From NCBI RefSeq assembly GCF_048403405.1, contig NZ_CP183129.1: 64,000 nt of DNA, one strand, 5' to 3'. How positions within the stretch are numbered: the stretch's first letter is position 1; every line of letters begins with the position of its first letter. The DNA comes from Escherichia coli. GTDB lineage: Bacteria > Pseudomonadota > Gammaproteobacteria > Enterobacterales > Enterobacteriaceae. The position numbers and the translations under genes were made by a program. Under the pieces are notes generated by a model, which worked only from the letters and a program-made list of their open reading frames with translations, searched no databases and was not told where the DNA came from. This document shows positions 1-27,476 of the stretch, piece by piece.

Positions 1-2
1 AT

Positions 3-551
3 CCGGTCAGCGATAACGCGGCGCTGACTGGGTTAAGTAAGCTTTTCCGGCACATTCAACCCGCCGTGAACGATCCTCAGGATCTGCGCGCAAAACTGGA
101 AATGCTGTGGGCGTCTTACTATGGCGGCGTAGCGATAACCCATGCGGGCACGCATCTCGTTCATGCGCTCTCCTACCCGTTAGGTGGCAAATATCATCTG
201 CCGCATGGCGTCGCGAATGCCATCTTGCTGGCGCCGTGCATGGCGTTTGTTCGCCCCTGGGCGGTCGAGAAATTTGCCCGGGTCTGGGATTGCATTCCCG
301 ATGCGGAAACCGCCCTGAGCGCGGAAGAAAAATCTCATGCCCTGGTGGCCTGGCTACAGGCATTAGTCAATCAACTCAAGCTACCCAACAATCTCGCGGA
401 TCTCGGCGTACCGCCAGAGGATATTGCCTCTCTTAGCGAGGCGGCACTGAACGTGAAGCGCCTTATGAACAATGCGCCGTGCCAGCTTGATCTACAGGAC
501 GTACAGGCCATTTACCAAACACTGTTTCCGCAACATCAATTTAAGGAATAA
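3..551 (+). CDS. Iron-containing alcohol dehydrogenase family protein, C-terminal part (gene continues upstream of the window)
   Basis: Open frame runs from the window edge to the stop at 551. The His-rich motif THAGTHLVHALSYPLGGKYHLPHGVANAILL resembles the metal-binding region of FucO/YqhD-type Fe-ADHs. The stop lies 3 nt before the next start codon. Confidence 0.6.
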   Translation, partial: PVSDNAALTGLSKLFRHIQPAVNDPQDLRAKLEMLWASYYGGVAITHAGTHLVHALSYPLGGKYHLPHGVANAILLAPCMAFVRPWAVEKFARVWDCIPDAETALSAEEKSHALVAWLQALVNQLKLPNNLADLGVPPEDIASLSEAALNVKRLMNNAPCQLDLQDVQAIYQTLFPQHQFKE

Positions 552-554
552 ATC

Positions 555-1442
555 ATGCCGAAAACCATTGAAGGTGTATTAACCGCCATCGTCACCCCGT
601 TTACCGCGACCGGCAGTCTGAATATCCCGGCGTTAAAAGTGCAGGTGAATCGTCAACTGGAAGCGGGTAACGCGATTTTTTGCGGCGGCACCAACGGCGA
701 GTTTTTTGTGTTGAATGAACAGGAGAAGCTCAGCGTTACGCAAACCTGCGTGGATGAAGTGGCTGGTCGTGCGCCGGTCGTGGCACACATTGGCGAGATC
801 TCGACGCGCGAAACGATTCGTCTGGGTCAGCAGATTGAAAAACTTGGCGTAGATGCTGTGTCGGTCATTACCCCTTACTTCGTACCGCTGAAACAGGAAG
901 AGTTGATTGCGCATTACAGCGCAATTGCCGACGCGCTGAGCATTCCGATGTTTCTCTATAACATCCCGGCCCGCACTGGCAATACGATCCAGCCGGAAAC
1001 CGCGCGTGCTCTGGCGTCGCATCCCAATATCATTGGGATTAAAGACAGCGCCGGAAGCGACGAAAGCCTGAAGGGTTTTCTCGATGCTGTGCGCAACATT
1101 GACGGCTTTAATGTACTCAACGGCCCGGATTCGCTGATCCATAAAGGGTTTGTCGAGGGGTGTTCAGCCTGTATCTCTGGGCTCGCCAACGTCGCACCGC
1201 GGGAAATCAATGCTATCTGGTCTCGCGTCCATGCCGGTGATATTGAAGGGTCTTATGAAGCACAGGAGAGTGTAACGGGCCTGCGTACCGACCTTTATAA
1301 AGTAGCGTTCTCCCCGGCTGCGGTGAAAAAAGCGTTGCAGCTTATGGGGCATGATGTTGGTGATAGCCGCTACGCGGTTAATTTCACGCCTGAACAGATC
1401 AGCGAGATTCAACAAATTATTCGTCATTATAACATTAATTAA
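555..1442 (+). CDS. DHDPS/N-acetylneuraminate-lyase family class I aldolase
   Basis: 295 aa. GGTNGEF motif resembles GTTGES of DapA; PYF and IIGIKDSAG contain the conserved Tyr and the Schiff-base Lys context of the DapA/NanA/KDG-aldolase family. RBS AAGGA lies upstream. Confidence 0.7.
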   Translation: MPKTIEGVLTAIVTPFTATGSLNIPALKVQVNRQLEAGNAIFCGGTNGEFFVLNEQEKLSVTQTCVDEVAGRAPVVAHIGEISTRETIRLGQQIEKLGVDAVSVITPYFVPLKQEELIAHYSAIADALSIPMFLYNIPARTGNTIQPETARALASHPNIIGIKDSAGSDESLKGFLDAVRNIDGFNVLNGPDSLIHKGFVEGCSACISGLANVAPREINAIWSRVHAGDIEGSYEAQESVTGLRTDLYKVAFSPAAVKKALQLMGHDVGDSRYAVNFTPEQISEIQQIIRHYNIN

Positions 1443-1501
1443 ATTAACTCTATTATCCAGCCCGCGATAAAGTTTAGATAAAGAGAATAAAGGATTACTC
1501 C

Positions 1502-2260
1502 ATGTTTTTGTGGTTTATGCAGCCAGATATCTGGCTCACTTTAATTACCCTCACCTTTCTGGAAATTATTCTTGGGGTGGATAATATTATTTTTCTTTCA
1601 CTGGTGGTGGCAAAACTTCCGTTATCACAACAAAATATGGCGCGTAAACTGGGTTTAAGCTGCGCGATGATTATGCGGATATTATTGCTGATATCCATTG
1701 CGTGGCTTTCACATATTACCCAGCCGCTTTTTACCGTGCTGACGCTGGAGATTTCGTTCCGCACGTTGATTCTGCTCGGGGGCGGGCTGTTCCTGATTTA
1801 TAAAGCGATACAGGAGATACGCGAAGAGCTGTCGCCCGCGCAGGAAGACGAACATGGCAGCGGATCGCGGCAACTGTCGTTGTGCGGTGCCATCGTACAG
1901 ATAATGCTGCTCGATATCGTGTTTAGCCTGGATTCGGTGATCACCGCCGTCGGCCTTTCTCAGCATATATTTATCATGATTGCCGCCGTAATGATTGCCG
2001 TCGGTGTCATGATGTTTGCGGCGAAAACAATTGGTGATTTCGTTAACGCCACGCCGTCAATAAAAATACTGGCGTTAACCTTTTTATTATTTGTCGGTGT
2101 ATTGCTGGTTGCCGATAGTCTCAACATTCATATTGCCAAAGAGTATCTCTACTTCGCGATATTTTTCTCATTAAGTGTTGAGACACTCAATATTATCCGT
2201 GAAAGAAGAAATAAAAAAGTTTCGACATTGATCGAAACGCATGAATCGCACTCGCATTAA
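1502..2260 (+). CDS. TerC/YgdQ-like (UPF0053) integral membrane protein
   Basis: 252 aa polytopic protein with LEIILGVDNIIFLSLVVAKLP and LDIVFSLDSVITAVG motifs typical of the TerC family. AAAGGA RBS. Visibly lower G+C (about 40 percent by eye) than its neighbours. Confidence 0.6.
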   Translation: MFLWFMQPDIWLTLITLTFLEIILGVDNIIFLSLVVAKLPLSQQNMARKLGLSCAMIMRILLLISIAWLSHITQPLFTVLTLEISFRTLILLGGGLFLIYKAIQEIREELSPAQEDEHGSGSRQLSLCGAIVQIMLLDIVFSLDSVITAVGLSQHIFIMIAAVMIAVGVMMFAAKTIGDFVNATPSIKILALTFLLFVGVLLVADSLNIHIAKEYLYFAIFFSLSVETLNIIRERRNKKVSTLIETHESHSH

Positions 2261-2295
2261 TAAATCTATTACCGACTTTAAGATGGAGTCTAACT

Positions 2296-3465
2296 ATGTC
2301 TGTAGCCCTTATTCGTGACGGCGTCATCCGTCCATCCGAAAACGATTCGCATGTGCTTACCGCCATGCTGCCCTCGTCCTGCCCACAAAACCACGCGGCG
2401 AATATTCTGCCTTTGCCGGATGGCGCGTTAATGTGCGTCTGGTTTGCGGGAACGCAGGAAGGTATTGCCGATATTTCTGTCTGGGGATCGCGATTGCCCG
2501 CTGGCGGGATGCAGTGGAGCGATGCGGTCAAACTTTCCCACGATGACACGCGTTCAGAGCAAAACCCAGTGCTGTTTCTCGCGCCGGATAACGTGCTGTG
2601 GCTGCTATGGACCGCACAAATATCCGGGAATCAGGACACCGCCATCGTCCGCTACCGTAAGTCAGACGACCTCGGACAAACCTGGGGCGAGATTGCCACG
2701 CTGCTCGATAAACCCGGCACGTTCATTCGCCAGCCGATCACGGTGCTTGATAACGGCAACTGGCTGCTGCCCGTCTTTTATTGCCGTACCCAACCCGGTG
2801 AAAAATGGGTCGGCAATGATGATATCAGCGCAGTGAAAATTTCCGCTGACGGTGGTCACTCCTGGCGCGATGTCGTGGTGCCGCAAAGTCTCGGCTGCGT
2901 TCATATGAATATCACAATGCTGCACGACAGTACGTTGGTTGCTCTCTTTCGAAGCCGTTGGGCAGACAACATCTATATCAGCCATTCAGTGGACAACGGC
3001 GAGAGTTGGTCGGTGCCGCAAGCTACCGAATTGCCCAACAACAATTCGTCTATTCAGGTAACGACGCTTGCCAGCGGCGAACTGGCGCTGGTGTACAACG
3101 CGATGAGTGCGGCAGGCGCAGTAGAACGTCGCGCGTCGCTTTATGACGAAATCGACGATGGCGACGACAGCCGCAAAGAACCGACAGCCGTCGGACGCTC
3201 CGCTTTCTGGGGGGCCCCACGCGCGCCGATGACGGTAGCGATTTCTGCCGATGGTGGGAAAAGCTGGCCGTGGCGGCGCAATCTCGATGAAGGCGACGGC
3301 TACTGCATGACCAACAATTCCCTGGAAAAGCTAAATCGTGAGTTCTCCTACCCCAGCATCAAACAAAGCCCGGACGGTACGCTACATATCGCTTACACCT
3401 GGTGGCGTCAGGCCATCAAGTACGTGCGCATCTCCCCCGAGTGGGTTAAGGGGCAGGCATCATGA
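2296..3465 (+). CDS. BNR/Asp-box repeat sialidase-like beta-propeller protein (GH33-like), apparently cytoplasmic
   Basis: 389 aa with four Asp-box motifs (SDDLGQTW, SADGGHSW, SVDNGESW, SADGGKSW). The N-terminus has no hydrophobic signal peptide. GGAG RBS. Confidence 0.65.
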   Translation: MSVALIRDGVIRPSENDSHVLTAMLPSSCPQNHAANILPLPDGALMCVWFAGTQEGIADISVWGSRLPAGGMQWSDAVKLSHDDTRSEQNPVLFLAPDNVLWLLWTAQISGNQDTAIVRYRKSDDLGQTWGEIATLLDKPGTFIRQPITVLDNGNWLLPVFYCRTQPGEKWVGNDDISAVKISADGGHSWRDVVVPQSLGCVHMNITMLHDSTLVALFRSRWADNIYISHSVDNGESWSVPQATELPNNNSSIQVTTLASGELALVYNAMSAAGAVERRASLYDEIDDGDDSRKEPTAVGRSAFWGAPRAPMTVAISADGGKSWPWRRNLDEGDGYCMTNNSLEKLNREFSYPSIKQSPDGTLHIAYTWWRQAIKYVRISPEWVKGQAS

Positions 3466-3932
3466 TTATCGGTAATCTCAACCATTTGTCGCTGGCGGGG
3501 CTTCCCGCCTGGGTGAGAAATATTCTGCTGTGCCCGGAGTGTTCGTTATCGGCGTTATCCGCCAGAGAGGACGGTCGCTGGCAACCTGAAGGATGTCGGT
3601 GGTTCTGCACGCTGGGAACTTCAGACACGCAACCCGCCGAACTCCGCCATACGGAGTATCACCATCTGTGGGCCGATATCCAGGTGGTGATTACTGGTTG
3701 TGAGGGCATTAATGCGGGAACGCGGCCCATCGCTCGCGAAAACGATGAAGAACGTAAGCCCGATCTGTTTATCGCCCCATCCCCTGAAAACAGTGTCGCC
3801 ATCACTCTACACCCCGGTGATTTCGCCGTCTTTATGCCTGAGGAACCTCACCAGGCGCTGTGCGCGATTGGCGCGGCTACGTCAGTACGCAAAGCGGTCT
3901 TTAAGGTACCGCGCGACATGCTGGAAGCCTAA
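3462..3932 (+). CDS. YhcH/YjgK/YiaL (DUF386) family protein, NanQ/EbgC-like
   Basis: 156 aa. C-terminal GDFAVFMPEEPH closely matches the conserved motif of E. coli YhcH. Start codon overlaps the upstream stop (ATGA), suggesting translational coupling. Confidence 0.65.
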   Translation: MIIGNLNHLSLAGLPAWVRNILLCPECSLSALSAREDGRWQPEGCRWFCTLGTSDTQPAELRHTEYHHLWADIQVVITGCEGINAGTRPIARENDEERKPDLFIAPSPENSVAITLHPGDFAVFMPEEPHQALCAIGAATSVRKAVFKVPRDMLEA

Positions 3933-3945
3933 AAGGAGAGAAAAA

Positions 3946-5226
3946 ATGACAATGGAAATGATCCTGGCATTAGGAATACTGGTCCTGATGATCGTGCTGA
4001 TCATGTCGGACAAAATGCCATTTGGCGCACCGCCACTGCTTGCGTGTTTATTGCTGGTTGTCTCGGGACTTTCGACCGTTCAACAGGCTTTTGCCGGATT
4101 CGTCAATCCAAGCGTGGTGATGATTGCAGGGTTTATGGTGGTCATGGCAGCGCTACAAAAAACCCGGCTTATCAGCAACGTTAAATCTGCGATGATAAGC
4201 CTGGTCAATAAAGGCAGTTACCGCAGCTACGGGCTGTTGTTAGTCATTGTTATGCTGGGTGCCAGTCTTGCAGGCACCGGCGCGACCGGTTATTACGTGC
4301 TGATTCTGTCGCTGGTATCCACCATTCCGTACAGTAAAAAGCTACCAACATCGAAATTAATGATGCCCCTGGGATTTGCCACCAACCACCCGCTTCTTCC
4401 TATCAATCTCGCGCTTCTCTTTGGCGTTACGGCGACCGTACTCGAAACCGCGGGTTTTCATCAGGAGATTTCGATGGGGCGCTTTGCGCTGGTGAATCTC
4501 ATCATGTCAGCGGCGTTCCTCGCATGGAGTCTTATTGCCTACCGTTTTCTTCCGGATCATCCCATTGCGGATGCTTCCGAGGATGCGCTGGCGGCACGCG
4601 AGGAAACGTTTAACGCCCTTCCTGCCTGGAAAGAATATTGCACTATTGCCGCATTCGCTGTCAGCGTTATCGGCATGATGCTAATGAACATTCTGGGAAA
4701 TATCGCCTTCGTTATTCCGGGTCTTGCGGGTGCGTTTGTTCTGATGATCGATGTACTGGACTTTAAAGAAGTTCGCGATCATATGGGAGCGCCGGTCATT
4801 TTAATGATGGCGGGGGTGATCGGTGTAGCTGATGCACTGGCGGGCACCGGCTTTACGGCGATGGTTGGCGATGCCGTTGCAGGTGTGCTCGGTTCTGGCG
4901 TCTCACCGTTTGTATTTATTGTCGCCTTTGCTTTGCTTACCAGTACCTGCGCCACCTTCACGGGTTCGAATATGGGGTCTGTTTATATTTTTGCCCCCAT
5001 CGCCATTGCCGCCTGTACCAGCCTTGGGCTTAACCCGACCGCTGCAGCGATTGCGGTGGTGATTTCAGGCTGGAACGGCGGCTATATGCCTATTGACGGA
5101 ATGCCAGCCATGATCCTCGGAATGGGGAAATACAAACTTCCCGAATTCTGGGTGTTCTCTGTACCAATGTATCTCATCCGCATTCTGGCGCTTTGTGCAG
5201 GCGCTGTTTTTATCTTCCCAATGTAA
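3946..5226 (+). CDS. Polytopic permease with two-repeat architecture (ion-transporter superfamily-like; exact family unresolved)
   Basis: 427 aa from the ATG preceded by a strong AAGGAG RBS; the ORF track's longer 508-aa frame overlaps the upstream gene. Multiple hydrophobic segments and an internal repeat (NPSVVMIAGFMVV / GAPVILMMAGVIGV). Confidence 0.5.
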   Translation: MTMEMILALGILVLMIVLIMSDKMPFGAPPLLACLLLVVSGLSTVQQAFAGFVNPSVVMIAGFMVVMAALQKTRLISNVKSAMISLVNKGSYRSYGLLLVIVMLGASLAGTGATGYYVLILSLVSTIPYSKKLPTSKLMMPLGFATNHPLLPINLALLFGVTATVLETAGFHQEISMGRFALVNLIMSAAFLAWSLIAYRFLPDHPIADASEDALAAREETFNALPAWKEYCTIAAFAVSVIGMMLMNILGNIAFVIPGLAGAFVLMIDVLDFKEVRDHMGAPVILMMAGVIGVADALAGTGFTAMVGDAVAGVLGSGVSPFVFIVAFALLTSTCATFTGSNMGSVYIFAPIAIAACTSLGLNPTAAAIAVVISGWNGGYMPIDGMPAMILGMGKYKLPEFWVFSVPMYLIRILALCAGAVFIFPM

Positions 5227-5233
5227 TCTCAGA

Positions 5234-5314: not shown

Positions 5315-7261
5315 TTACTTTTTGATTTCATACAGCGGCGTTTGACCCGCCACGACATGGCCCTGAGCTTTAATGATCAAGCCGCTGAAATCGTCGATAT
5401 TGCTGCAAACCACCGGGCTAATCATCGAGCGGGCGTTAGCGTTCAGGTAATCCAGATCCATTTCCAGAATCGGTTGTCCTGCGCTTACCTGCGCGCCCTC
5501 TTCCACCAGACGTTTAAAACCTTTACCTTCCAGCGCTACGGTGTCGATACCCATATGGACGACGATCTCCGCGCCTTTTTCGGTTTCCAGGCAGAACGCG
5601 TGGTTGGTATTGAAGATTTTCACGATTGTCCCTGCGGCTGGTGATACGACGATTTTATCTGTCGGTTTCACCGCCACACCGTCACCCACCGCTTTGCTGG
5701 CGAATGCTTCGTCAGGAACCTGATCCAGTGCCACAACATCACCGGTAATCGGCGATACCAGCTCCGCGACAGACACCGCGTTTGGTATAGCCTGCGGTTT
5801 TGCTACAGGCGCGGCAGTTGCAGGCGCAGTTTCAGCTGACGTAGCGGCTACCGGACCACGGGCAACAACTTTCTTCATTGCATCGCCAATGGATTCCGCT
5901 TTCGCGCCAACAATCACCTGAATAGTCTGTTTGTTCAGTTTCACTACCCCAGAAGCACCCAGCCGTTTACACATCGCATCGTTGACGCGAGCCGAGTCAA
6001 CCACGGTCAGGCGCAGACGAGTAATACAGGCGTCAATTGCTTTCAGGTTGTCAGTGCCGCCAACCGCAGCAATATAGTTGGTCGCCAGTTGATTGAGGCC
6101 TTCTTCAGTGTTGCTGTTGGCTTCTTCAGTAACGATCTCATCTTCTTTATCTTCACGACCCGGCGTTTTCAGGTTGAACATGCGGATAACCAAACTGAAC
6201 ACCACGAAGTAGATAGCGAAGAAGACAACACCCATCACCAGCAGCATCCAGACGTTCTGGCTGGCGGCCGGCAGGTTATACATCAACGCGTAGTCGATAG
6301 CCCCCGCAGAGAAGGAGAAGCCCGCGTGGATACCCAGCAGCGTTGCCACAAACAGGCTGATACCGGTCAGCAGTGCGTGCAGGAGGTACAGCAGCGGCGC
6401 AAGGAACATGAACAGGAATTCCAGCGGCTCAGTCACACCGGTCAGGAACGCAGTAACAGCAACAGAAAGCAGCATACCGCCAACCATCGGACGACGCTCT
6501 TTCGGTGCTGCAAAGTACATCGCCAGCGCCGCACCCGGCAGACCGAACATCATGATCGGGAAGAAGCCGGACATGAACATCCCCGCGGTGCCGTCACCGG
6601 CATAGAAGCGGTTGATGTCACCGTGGAAAACCGTACCCGCCGCGTTGGTGAATTCACCAATCTGGAACCAGGCGATGGTGTTCAGTACCTGATGCAGACC
6701 GGTTGGGATCAGCAGACGGTTGATGAAACCAAAGATACCGGAACCCAGCGCGCCCGCAGAAACGATCCACTCGCCGCCTGCATGGATAGCGTGCTGTACC
6801 GGCGGCCAGACGTAACCAAAAATGGCCGCCAGCACCAGGCAGAAGAAGCCGGTGGCAATCGGCACAAAGCGTTTGCCGCCGAAGAAACTCAGGAAGTCCG
6901 GCAGTTTAATATCGGACCAACGGTTATAAGCTGCGCCACCAACCAGACCGGTAATGATACCCGCCAGTACACCCATGTTAATTTCCGGGTTGATGGTCAC
7001 CATCGCTTTGGTTAACACAAAGTAACCTACCGCACCCGCCAGCGCCGCCGCACCTGCGCTGTCTTTCGACCAGCTGGATGCCACACCGATGGCGAAGATT
7101 AATGCGAGGTTATCAAAAATCGCACCGCCCGCCTGGGCAATAAACGCAACGTTAAGTAAATCTGGCTGACCGAATCGCAGCAACAGCGCCGCCACCGGCA
7201 GCACCGCGATAGGGAGCTGTAACGCCCTACCGAGTCGCTGGAAAAAACCTAAAATATTCAT
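5315..7261 (-). CDS. nagE: PTS N-acetylglucosamine-specific EIICBA component
   Basis: 648 aa; sequence and position divergent from nagB match E. coli NagE. Confidence 0.93.
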   Translation of the reverse strand: MNILGFFQRLGRALQLPIAVLPVAALLLRFGQPDLLNVAFIAQAGGAIFDNLALIFAIGVASSWSKDSAGAAALAGAVGYFVLTKAMVTINPEINMGVLAGIITGLVGGAAYNRWSDIKLPDFLSFFGGKRFVPIATGFFCLVLAAIFGYVWPPVQHAIHAGGEWIVSAGALGSGIFGFINRLLIPTGLHQVLNTIAWFQIGEFTNAAGTVFHGDINRFYAGDGTAGMFMSGFFPIMMFGLPGAALAMYFAAPKERRPMVGGMLLSVAVTAFLTGVTEPLEFLFMFLAPLLYLLHALLTGISLFVATLLGIHAGFSFSAGAIDYALMYNLPAASQNVWMLLVMGVVFFAIYFVVFSLVIRMFNLKTPGREDKEDEIVTEEANSNTEEGLNQLATNYIAAVGGTDNLKAIDACITRLRLTVVDSARVNDAMCKRLGASGVVKLNKQTIQVIVGAKAESIGDAMKKVVARGPVAATSAETAPATAAPVAKPQAIPNAVSVAELVSPITGDVVALDQVPDEAFASKAVGDGVAVKPTDKIVVSPAAGTIVKIFNTNHAFCLETEKGAEIVVHMGIDTVALEGKGFKRLVEEGAQVSAGQPILEMDLDYLNANARSMISPVVCSNIDDFSGLIIKAQGHVVAGQTPLYEIKK

Positions 7262-13892: not shown

Positions 13893-13931
13893 GCGCCCCG
13901 CAACGCCGATAAGGTATCGCGAAAAAAAGAT

Positions 13932-14008
13932 GGCTACGTAGCTCAGTTGGTTAGAGCACATCACTCATAATGATGGGGTCACAGGTTCGAATCCCGTCGT
14001 AGCCACCA
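13932..14008 (+). tRNA. metT: tRNA-Met (CAU), elongator
   Basis: 77-nt cloverleaf ending CCA; anticodon loop CTCATAA. Confidence 0.9.
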
Positions 14009-14016
14009 TCTTTTTT

Positions 14017-14101
14017 GCGGGAGTGGCGAAATTGGTAGACGCACCAGATTTAGGTTCTGGCGCCGCAAGGTGTGCGAGTTCAAGTCTCGCCTCCCGCACC
14101 A
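14017..14101 (+). tRNA. leuW: tRNA-Leu (UAG)
   Basis: 85-nt class II tRNA with long variable arm; anticodon TAG; ends CCA. Confidence 0.9.
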
Positions 14102-14124
14102 TTCACCAGAAAGCGTTGTACGGA

Positions 14125-14199
14125 TGGGGTATCGCCAAGCGGTAAGGCACCGGTTTTTGATACCGGCATTCCCTGGTTCGAATCCAGGTACCCCAGCCA
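14125..14199 (+). tRNA. glnU: tRNA-Gln (UUG)
   Basis: 75 nt; TGGGGTATCGCCAAGCGG..., anticodon loop TTTTGAT; ends CCA. Confidence 0.9.
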
Positions 14200-14233
14200 T
14201 CTTCTTCGAGTAAGCGGTTCACCGCCCGGTTAT

Positions 14234-14308
14234 TGGGGTATCGCCAAGCGGTAAGGCACCGGTTTTTGATACCGGCATTCCCTGGTTCGAATCCAGGTAC
14301 CCCAGCCA
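14234..14308 (+). tRNA. glnW: tRNA-Gln (UUG)
   Basis: Identical copy of the preceding tRNA-Gln (UUG). Confidence 0.9.
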
Positions 14309-14323
14309 TCGAAGAAACAATCT

Positions 14324-14400
14324 GGCTACGTAGCTCAGTTGGTTAGAGCACATCACTCATAATGATGGGGTCACAGGTTCGAATCCCGTCGTAGCCACCA
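14324..14400 (+). tRNA. metU: tRNA-Met (CAU), elongator
   Basis: Identical copy of the first tRNA-Met. Confidence 0.9.
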
Positions 14401-14448
14401 AATTCTGAATGTGTCGAATATGTTCGGCAAATTCAAAAACCAATTTGT

Positions 14449-14523
14449 TGGGGTATCGCCAAGCGGTAAGGCACCGGATTCTGATTCCGGCATTCCGAGG
14501 TTCGAATCCTCGTACCCCAGCCA
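14449..14523 (+). tRNA. glnV: tRNA-Gln (CUG)
   Basis: 75 nt; anticodon loop TTCTGAT; ends CCA. Confidence 0.9.
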
Positions 14524-14560
14524 ATTTATTCAAGACGCTTACCTTGTAAGTGCACCCAGT

Positions 14561-14635
14561 TGGGGTATCGCCAAGCGGTAAGGCACCGGATTCTGATTCC
14601 GGCATTCCGAGGTTCGAATCCTCGTACCCCAGCCA
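14561..14635 (+). tRNA. glnX: tRNA-Gln (CUG)
   Basis: Identical copy of the preceding tRNA-Gln (CUG). Confidence 0.9.
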
Positions 14636-14640
14636 CATTA

Positions 14641-14672
14641 AAAAAGCTCGCTTCGGCGAGCTTTTTGCTTTT
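14641..14672 (+). terminator. Rho-independent terminator of the tRNA operon
   Basis: A-tract, GCTCGC-ttcg-GCGAGC hairpin, T-tract. Confidence 0.7.
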
Positions 14673-14757
14673 ATGAAATCCGAAAAAATCACCCATACAT
14701 AGTGGTCGTTAATGACCAGTGATACATTGCCTGCCTTCATAACAAAAGGATCTTGCA

Positions 14758-26013: not shown

Positions 26014-26949
26014 ATGGCACTGCCAATTCTGTTAGATTGCGACCCAGGTCATGACGACGCTATCGCAATAGTTCTTGCCCTCGCCTCACCAGAGCTTGAT
26101 GTCAAAGCAATTACGTCTTCCGCCGGAAACCAGACTCCAGAAAAAACCTTACGCAATGTTCTGCGTATGCTGACCTTGCTTAATCGCACCGATATTCCGG
26201 TAGCAGGCGGCGCGGTAAAACCGTTAATGCGTGAGTTGATTATCGCGGACAATGTGCACGGCGAAAGCGGTCTCGACGGCCCGGCATTACCGGAACCGAC
26301 GTTCGCACCGCAAAACTGTACGGCGGTGGAGCTGATGGCGAAAACGCTGCGTGAAAGTGCGGAACCTGTCACGATTGTGTCTACCGGACCGCAAACTAAC
26401 GTTGCCTTGCTGCTCAATAGCCATCCGGAACTGCATAGCAAAATTGCCCGTATCGTGATTATGGGCGGCGCAATGGGGCTTGGTAACTGGACGCCAGCCG
26501 CCGAGTTTAATATTTATGTTGACCCGGAAGCGGCAGAAATTGTTTTCCAGTCAGGGATCCCGGTGGTGATGGCCGGTCTGGATGTTACTCACAAAGCACA
26601 AATTCACGTTGAGGACACCGAGCGTTTCCGCGCGATTGGCAACCCTGTTTCAACCATTGTTGCCGAACTGCTGGATTTCTTCCTCGAATATCATAAAGAC
26701 GAAAAATGGGGCTTTGTCGGCGCACCGCTGCATGACCCATGCACCATCGCCTGGCTGTTAAACCCGGAGTTGTTTACCACTGTTGAGCGCTGGGTTGGCG
26801 TGGAAACACAAGGGAAATATACCCAGGGTATGACGGTTGTTGATTATTATTATCTGACCGGCAATAAACCGAATGCTACTGTAATGGTCGATGTTGATCG
26901 TCAGGGCCTTGTTGATTTACTGGCTGATCGTCTGAAATTTTACGCTTAA
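26014..26949 (+). CDS. rihA: Pyrimidine-specific ribonucleoside hydrolase
   Basis: 311 aa from [15 protein letters not shown] (nucleoside hydrolase motif) with AAGGAG RBS. Confidence 0.92.
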
Positions 26950-26993
26950 TCACTCGCCGGATGACATCACGCCATCCGGCACCACTCATTTCA

Positions 26994-27476
26994 TTAAGGC
27001 TCGAACGGGCGTCTCTGGAACTGGTCATGACCACATTTCGGGCATAGCGTCAGCACTTCCGGTGTGTAGATCGGGAGATGGAAATGACATTTCTCGCAGA
27101 CCAGATTACCCAGCCCTACCACTTCTCCGCTGTGATAAACCCCGTGATGATTGAGGTCCTGGAAAACTTCGCGCCATTCAAGCTGCGTTTTATCGGTGAT
27201 GTCTGCCAGCTCCTGCCACAAGCTTTCTTTAATCACCCGCATAAAGACGCTGTCAGACTCTTCTTTCAGGCTCTCTTCATAGCTCATGGCGAACTCTTCC
27301 AGGTCACGTCTGACAGCTCGCGTCAGCTCATCGACTTCGGTTCGCGTTAACTCCCCTGTTTTTATTACGCGCTCGCGCGCCTGTTCCACCAGTGCGTCGA
27401 TATCACGTTCGCCATTGCGCAGGCGTTCGCTCAGTGACGCGACCAGTTCACGGTAATATTGAGCAACCTTGTTCAT
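26994..27476 (-). CDS. ybeL: DUF1451 zinc-ribbon protein YbeL
   Basis: 160 aa; C-terminal CxxC...CPKC pairs; convergent with rihA. Confidence 0.85.
   Translation of the reverse strand: MNKVAQYYRELVASLSERLRNGERDIDALVEQARERVIKTGELTRTEVDELTRAVRRDLEEFAMSYEESLKEESDSVFMRVIKESLWQELADITDKTQLEWREVFQDLNHHGVYHSGEVVGLGNLVCEKCHFHLPIYTPEVLTLCPKCGHDQFQRRPFEP

Follow-up and report, generated by a model that had tools for sequence, protein, structure and literature searches.

A 44-nt junction between convergent rihA and ybeL in Escherichia coli is probably the empty allele of an old presence/absence polymorphism

Introduction

The annotated record of Escherichia coli K-12 gives the gene order leuS, ybeL, ybeQ, ybeR, djlB, ybeT, ybeU, djlC, hscC, rihA, gltL, in which rihA and ybeL stand at either end of a block of genes that includes the Hsp70 paralogue gene hscC. 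In the window analysed here, by which we mean a whole stretch of 64,000 nucleotides of an E. coli genome (contig NZ_CP183129.1, assembly GCF_048403405.1), the same two genes converge on a spacer of only 44 nt. This raises the question of what the short junction represents: a site from which the block was lost, a site which the block has yet to enter, or one of two forms which have existed side by side for a long time. A preliminary description of the window had given the K-12 order from ybeQ to hscC, and this order matches the annotated record exactly; rihA and ybeL are not neighbours in K-12, where the block lies between them.

Results

The rihA–ybeL junction compared with K-12

The pyrimidine-specific ribonucleoside hydrolase gene rihA occupies 26014–26949 on the plus strand and ends in a TAA codon at 26947–26949 (Pfam IU_nuc_hydro, E 2e-105; 99% amino-acid identity to K-12 RihA). 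The DUF1451 zinc-ribbon protein gene ybeL lies at 26994–27476 on the minus strand, with its stop codon at 26994–26996 (Pfam DUF1451, E 7e-50; 100% amino-acid identity to K-12 YbeL). Both genes were assigned from their open reading frames and from the annotation of a junction-identical genome, and the order around them is gltJ-gltK-gltL-rihA on the plus strand, ybeL on the minus strand and leuS on the plus strand. The spacer of what we call the “empty” allele is the 44 nt between the two convergent stop codons, at 26950–26993. The open reading frames and the hairpin sequence agree with the preliminary description, in which the two genes were convergent, 44 nt apart and separated by a hairpin.

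In BLAST comparison with K-12, homology stops at 26949 (K-12 683477), the last base of the rihA stop codon, and restarts at 26993 (K-12 675501), one base outside the ybeL stop codon. Going by these breakpoints, 7,975 bp of K-12 are replaced by 43 nt here, and homologues of the block genes were found nowhere in the 64-kb window, hence there is no displaced copy and the block is absent, as had been proposed. The flanks are 97.2% and 98.5% identical to K-12 on the two sides of the junction. Together with the missing block and a missing IS5 between gltI and lnt, these values uphold the view that the window comes from a non-K-12 strain. The IS5 copy concerned (IS5D/insH3 in K-12) would lie in the gltI–lnt intergenic region at approximately 22574 of the window, where the K-12 alignment has a gap of ~1.2 kb.

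The preliminary description had suggested aligning the junction and looking for a scar or repeat. Nothing of the kind was seen at the breakpoint when the spacer was locally aligned to the whole K-12 block and to both block ends. The only resemblance of the spacer to any part of the K-12 block is to a generic REP between djlC and hscC. This palindrome, GCCGGATGCAGCGTTTACGCCGCATCCGGC, is of the REP type; djlC and hscC converge on it in K-12 (locus L001, 11685–11715), and it is kept in Escherichia sp. E1V33, E. whittamii and E. marmotae; the K-12 feature table lists no repeat there.

A foreign origin of the empty allele was considered and rejected, since divergence from K-12 near the junction is only mildly raised (4–5% against a background of 1–2%). 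Peaks comparable to that at the junction were also seen elsewhere in the flanks in a sliding comparison to K-12.

The window shows further differences between strains away from the junction. A second accessory island occupies window positions 1–5230, beside nagE (5315–7261, minus strand), and in the annotation of matching genomes it encodes an SLC13 permease, a sialidase-family protein, a dihydrodipicolinate-synthase-family protein, TerC and an iron-containing alcohol dehydrogenase. Strains GN02461, 4621, MS 69-1 and TUM1226 match this island at 100% identity and E2348/69 at 98.9%; 1,046 of 5,426 genomes contain at least 80% of it, a count near that of the empty-site carriers. The genome CFSAN061763 is identical to the window around the rihA–ybeL junction and 99.47% identical over 15349–64000, but its left end differs and the 1–5230 island is absent there. 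At the tRNA cluster Met-Leu-Gln-Gln-Met-Gln-Gln (~13900–14700), a 560-nt offset and repeated partial matches relative to CFSAN061763 suggest that tRNA repeat units differ in number or arrangement between the two.

A REP-like hairpin in the spacer

A REP-like palindrome of 25 nt lies in the spacer (26956–26980), beginning 6 nt past the rihA stop codon and ending 13 nt short of the ybeL stop codon. Its 8-bp arms, GCCGGATG and CATCCGGC, enclose a 9-nt loop, and its sequence reads GCCGGATG-ACATCACG-CCATCCGGC, as given in the preliminary description. The pattern GCCGGATG-N(4–25)-CATCCGGC has this one match in the 64-kb window, with 0 expected from 100 shuffles. The predicted fold has an energy of −14.8 kcal/mol on the plus strand (z −3.1) and −23 kcal/mol on the minus strand (z −4.2), and on both strands it is better than that of 200 of 200 shuffled sequences.

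A consensus scan for intrinsic terminators did not call the hairpin on either strand; it is followed by no T-run, the tails being ACCACTCATTTC on the plus strand and GAGTGATTAAGC on the minus strand. It has no match in Rfam either, hence a known RNA family and a canonical terminator were both ruled out.

REPs of E. coli are characterised by a GTAG tag and an imperfect palindrome with a conserved two-base mismatch bulge, at a length of 29–37 nt, and the GTAG tetranucleotide (CTAC on the other strand) is needed by TnpA-REP (PMC8266576). Neither GTAG nor CTAC is present beside the hairpin, the flanks of which read ...AATCACTC and ACCACTCA...; the nearest tetranucleotide is GTGG, offset by one base. 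The palindrome has only the arms of a REP, lacks tag and bulge and is 25 nt long, and we therefore term it REP-like, or a decayed REP, and not a true REP. Such an element would be an unlikely substrate for TnpA-REP (RAYT).

REP325 is reported to be a partly Rho-dependent terminator as well as an mRNA stabiliser, and where a REP lies between two convergent genes, its presence correlates with higher expression of the pair (preprint 10.64898/2026.03.23.713779). By analogy, the rihA and ybeL messages probably share this hairpin as their 3′ end, where, as described for REPs, it would shield both convergent transcripts from 3′ exonucleases and partly block read-through. In K-12 the 3′ end of ybeL has a separate GC-rich hairpin with a T-run after it, hence the two alleles give rihA and ybeL entirely different 3′ ends.

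The block occupying the site in K-12

The genes which fill the site in K-12 encode proteins with Sel1 repeats (YbeQ, YbeT), DUF1266 proteins (YbeR, YbeU), a protein with a weak J-domain match (DjlB) and an HSP70 protein (HscC), according to Pfam. GC content is 0.42–0.49 across most of the block, compared with 0.51–0.54 in the flanks. The block contains no integrase or transposase, its genes being only of the Sel1, DUF1266, J-domain and Hsp70 types. Its ends carry no flanking direct repeats, and it lies between rihA and ybeL rather than beside a tRNA gene. A function in anti-phage defence was also considered: in PADLOC-DB 2.0 only the two Sel1 proteins matched, both weakly to PtuA over ~50 residues (E 1e-4 and 5e-3), and the five others had no match, hence the block was not accepted as a known defence system for want of a credible match.

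DjlB and DjlC are J-domain partners of HscC, none of the three proteins is detectable during exponential growth, and deletion of hscC does not lower viability, the known phenotypes being sensitivity to Cd2+ and UV (review PMC8215388). HscC is also sporadic across prokaryotes, and horizontal transfer has been proposed for it (PMC8215388). Dispensability, phenotypes, sporadic distribution and composition together fit an accessory module.

Frequency of the two alleles in E. coli

Among 5,426 complete E. coli genomes, rihA and ybeL form a contiguous junction in 964. Of these, 889 have the 44-nt spacer of the window (97.3–100% identity over a 76-nt query) and about 71 a 39-nt variant. Carriers of the 44-nt spacer include CFT073, ATCC 25922, APEC O18, an APEC O2:K1:H4 strain and IAI39, the spacer being identical to that of the window in IAI39 and 1 nt different in CFT073; UTI89 has the empty-site junction too. 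The block is at least 80% present in 3,663 of the 5,426 genomes and occurs in a shorter form of ~5.2 kb in about 786, while 977 have no block match anywhere in the genome. K-12 and about 82% of the complete E. coli genomes thus have the block-bearing allele, at 8.0 kb or 5.2 kb.

The 5.2-kb form arose by a genuine deletion inside the block, which removed ybeR and most of ybeQ and djlB and left annotated djlB and ybeQ pseudogene fragments behind (locus L089, NZ_OZ043945.1, 7635–8100). It therefore exemplifies a deletion scar at this locus, which the junction in the window, free of pseudogene remnants, does not resemble.

Probable exchange of alleles between strain backgrounds

Two pairs of strains and six E. 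coli sequences were examined for signs of recombination. In trees and identity matrices of gltJ, gltK, gltL, rihA, ybeL and leuS, the strains cluster by background and not by allele, and across ybeL and the last 800 nt of rihA there are 0 sites with fixed differences between the allele classes, which rules out an allele-class haplotype in the flanks. In the first pair, IAI39 (empty) and SMS-3-5 (full block) are 99.9% identical in gltL and 99.5% in leuS, and 98.0% in rihA and 98.1% in ybeL. Counted per 250 nt outwards from the junction, the differences in this pair number 8, 6 and 4 towards rihA and 3 and 6 towards ybeL, and beyond that approximately none. The second pair, CFT073 (empty) and a strain with the short block, is 100% identical in gltK and 99.7% in leuS.

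With flanks which group by background and differences which cluster at the junction, the pattern is most simply read as replacement of one allele by the other. Elsewhere in the flanks there are SNP clusters of comparable size, and the tracts at the junction are suggestive, not proven, as a sign of such replacement. Alleles could be switched by homologous recombination in the core flanks, through gltJKL-rihA on one side and ybeL-leuS on the other, and neither site-specific recombination nor transposition nor a fresh deletion would be required.

The site in other species

We scanned the neighbourhood of ybeL at 80 loci, 76 of them from outside Escherichia, and mapped them with K-12 proteins; E. 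albertii, E. fergusonii, S. bongori and the main E. coli species representative lay outside this sample. The genes ybeL and rihA are directly convergent in 31 of the 76 non-Escherichia loci, and ybeL stands directly against gltL, without rihA, in a further 27. The HscC block was found in none of the 76. The suggestion in the preliminary description that the block is itself accessory is borne out by this result, by its absence from 977 of the E. coli genomes and by its lower GC content.

Of the 58 direct spacers, 18 contain a REP-type palindrome. Canonical REPs, or inverted REP pairs, that end in CCTAC are found in S. arizonae and several Citrobacter species, and Citrobacter sp. FP75 has a shortened palindrome of 25 nt, close to that of the window.

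About ten loci carry other cargo at the ybeL site. This includes chaperone-usher fimbrial operons in Citrobacter, TPS/ShlB two-partner secretion pairs in Leclercia, Silvania, Klebsiella oxytoca and K. grimontii, and an Hcp gene in Enterobacter. A secreted protein of 318–328 aa with no Pfam match is encoded alone at the site in Superficieibacter and an uncultured enterobacterium (loci L034, L066 and L029). Such varied cargo downstream of ybeL across genera indicates a recurrent insertion site in the family. Relatives of the 318–328-aa proteins also occur within Escherichia, as in Escherichia sp. MOD1-EC7003 (locus L005, 10481–12996) ybeL and the block are separated by a further 2.5 kb, with an apparently split J-domain gene (93-aa and 344-aa open reading frames) and a 321-aa secreted protein of this kind.

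Age and origin of the two alleles

Each allele has a single conserved junction and is present in several backgrounds within E. coli as well as in other lineages of Escherichia. Three accounts of how E. coli came to have two states were weighed against long co-existence of the alleles.

The first holds that the block was fixed in early Escherichia and that the empty allele was later recombined in from a relative which never had the block. The empty state would then be derived within E. coli, although its sequence is ancestral. In favour of this account, the block is present in each of the three Escherichia species other than E. coli for which the whole site could be seen, the empty spacer is similar to those in other genera, and strains appear to exchange alleles through the flanks. 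The flanks of the empty allele are nevertheless those of ordinary E. coli, at 97–98.5% identity to K-12, and a divergent lineage is also empty. This lineage, locus L004, is labelled E. coli but has flanks only 93–96% identical to other E. coli. Its ybeL and rihA genes are adjacent, and its 39-nt spacer, TAACTCGCCGGATGACATCACGTCATCCGGCGCCATTCA, is clearly homologous to that of the window and has diverged about as much as the flanks, which fits long co-existence better than a recent import. We consider such a re-import unlikely.

A second account makes the empty site the ancestral state of E. coli and the block a recent horizontal acquisition in some lineages, including that of K-12. The block is missing at the site in nearly all sampled non-Escherichia genera, its GC content is below that of the flanks and horizontal transfer has been proposed for the sporadic HscC (PMC8215388), all of which would suit a recent gain. 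Against this, K-12, Escherichia sp. E1V33, E. whittamii and E. marmotae share the same block junction sequences, and E. marmotae (locus L084) has a one-module form of the block. Identical junctions in these lineages point to a single insertion event older than all of them, or to spread of the block together with its flanks. The block also lacks integrase and transposase genes and flanking repeats.

Further evidence against a recent gain comes from Salmonella enterica, where a copy of the block was found via relatives of HscC, separately from the ybeL-neighbourhood scan. S. enterica contigs carry gltL, rihA, a 412-aa gene, hscC, djlC, a DUF1266 gene, djlB, a second DUF1266 gene, a 331-aa gene and ybeL, at the same site and in the same orientation as in K-12. 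An Escherichia-specific insertion of the block was accordingly dropped as an explanation. K-12 and S. enterica share 83% identity in HscC and 48–63% in the remaining block proteins, and synonymous divergence is saturated in the block (dS at least 2.4 or not computable), compared with 0.75–1.6 for gltJKL, rihA and ybeL. Saturation means that the two blocks have been apart for at least as long as the species, and recent transfer of the block between E. coli and Salmonella is ruled out. The S. enterica loci have two peculiarities of their own: the 412-aa gene between rihA and hscC (L082 and L083, 8687–9925) is an extra gene with no Pfam match, and one DUF1266 gene is not called in L082, unlike in L083. 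On these comparisons the block does not appear to be a recent gain of the K-12 lineage, an account which we rate as quite improbable, and the empty and block alleles both appear to be old.

The remaining account, that an ancestor lost a K-12-type block by illegitimate or repeat-mediated deletion and kept the hairpin as a scar, we consider highly improbable: presence of the block in most E. coli and several other Escherichia makes loss parsimonious on a simple species tree, and deletions inside the block do happen, as the 5.2-kb form shows, but the 44-nt spacer is unlike either block end, no direct repeats flank the block, the same junction recurs in 889 genomes of differing backgrounds, a diverged version of the spacer exists in the L004 lineage, the site in the window is clean where the 5.2-kb form leaves pseudogene fragments, and a REP-type hairpin occupies the same position in other genera.

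Discussion

Taken together, we think it likely that an old presence/absence polymorphism exists between rihA and ybeL and that the window has its “empty” allele. The alleles would be exchanged through their flanks, and the hairpin would form the shared 3′ end of the two convergent messages. Read in this way, “absent” relative to K-12 is not the same as “deleted” and should not be read as such, as the spacer appears to be an old allele in its own right. The variation is of an ordinary pan-genome kind, lies at a hotspot, is visible in existing annotations and will not surprise a specialist.

A stronger version of the polymorphism would make the two alleles a balanced trans-species polymorphism, present in Escherichia and in parallel in Salmonella (block in S. 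enterica, empty site in S. arizonae), older than the species themselves, with the REP-bearing spacer downstream of ybeL as the target behind a family-wide insertion hotspot. This stronger version seems doubtful to us. If it were true, a condition-dependent cost and benefit of the poorly understood HscC-DjlB/DjlC module would be implied.

The old polymorphism itself has practical consequences. HscC, DjlB and DjlC are often listed as E. coli chaperones, yet they are missing in about 18% of complete genomes, including reference uropathogens. The allele classes of E. coli could be told apart by a single PCR, with 44 nt in one class and 5.2 or 8.0 kb in the other. The site also illustrates an old indel polymorphism that homologous recombination has shuffled, and a convergent junction, marked by a REP, with different cargo in different genera.

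Three known systems invite comparison. The HscC-DjlB/DjlC Hsp70 system of K-12 occupies this very position, in company with Sel1 and DUF1266 genes, none of which are present in the window. The hairpin shares with REP and BIME elements (y, z1, z2) its nature as an extragenic palindrome, its arms of the GCCGGATG...CATCCGGC type and its place between convergent genes, and canonical REPs or REP pairs fill the same spacer in Citrobacter, Salmonella arizonae and Kluyvera. It differs from a canonical REP (29–37 nt, bulged stem) in its length of 25 nt and its perfect 8-bp stem, with neither bulge nor tag. Core-genome integration hotspots are set apart from this locus by the lack of any integrase, tRNA gene or phage remnants at the site, and by the fact that within E. 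coli it is essentially two-state, empty or occupied by the HscC block, rather than highly variable. The likeness to such hotspots lies in a fixed site between core genes, the contents of which vary by strain and genus, and in alleles which, here too, appear to be exchanged via flanking homology.
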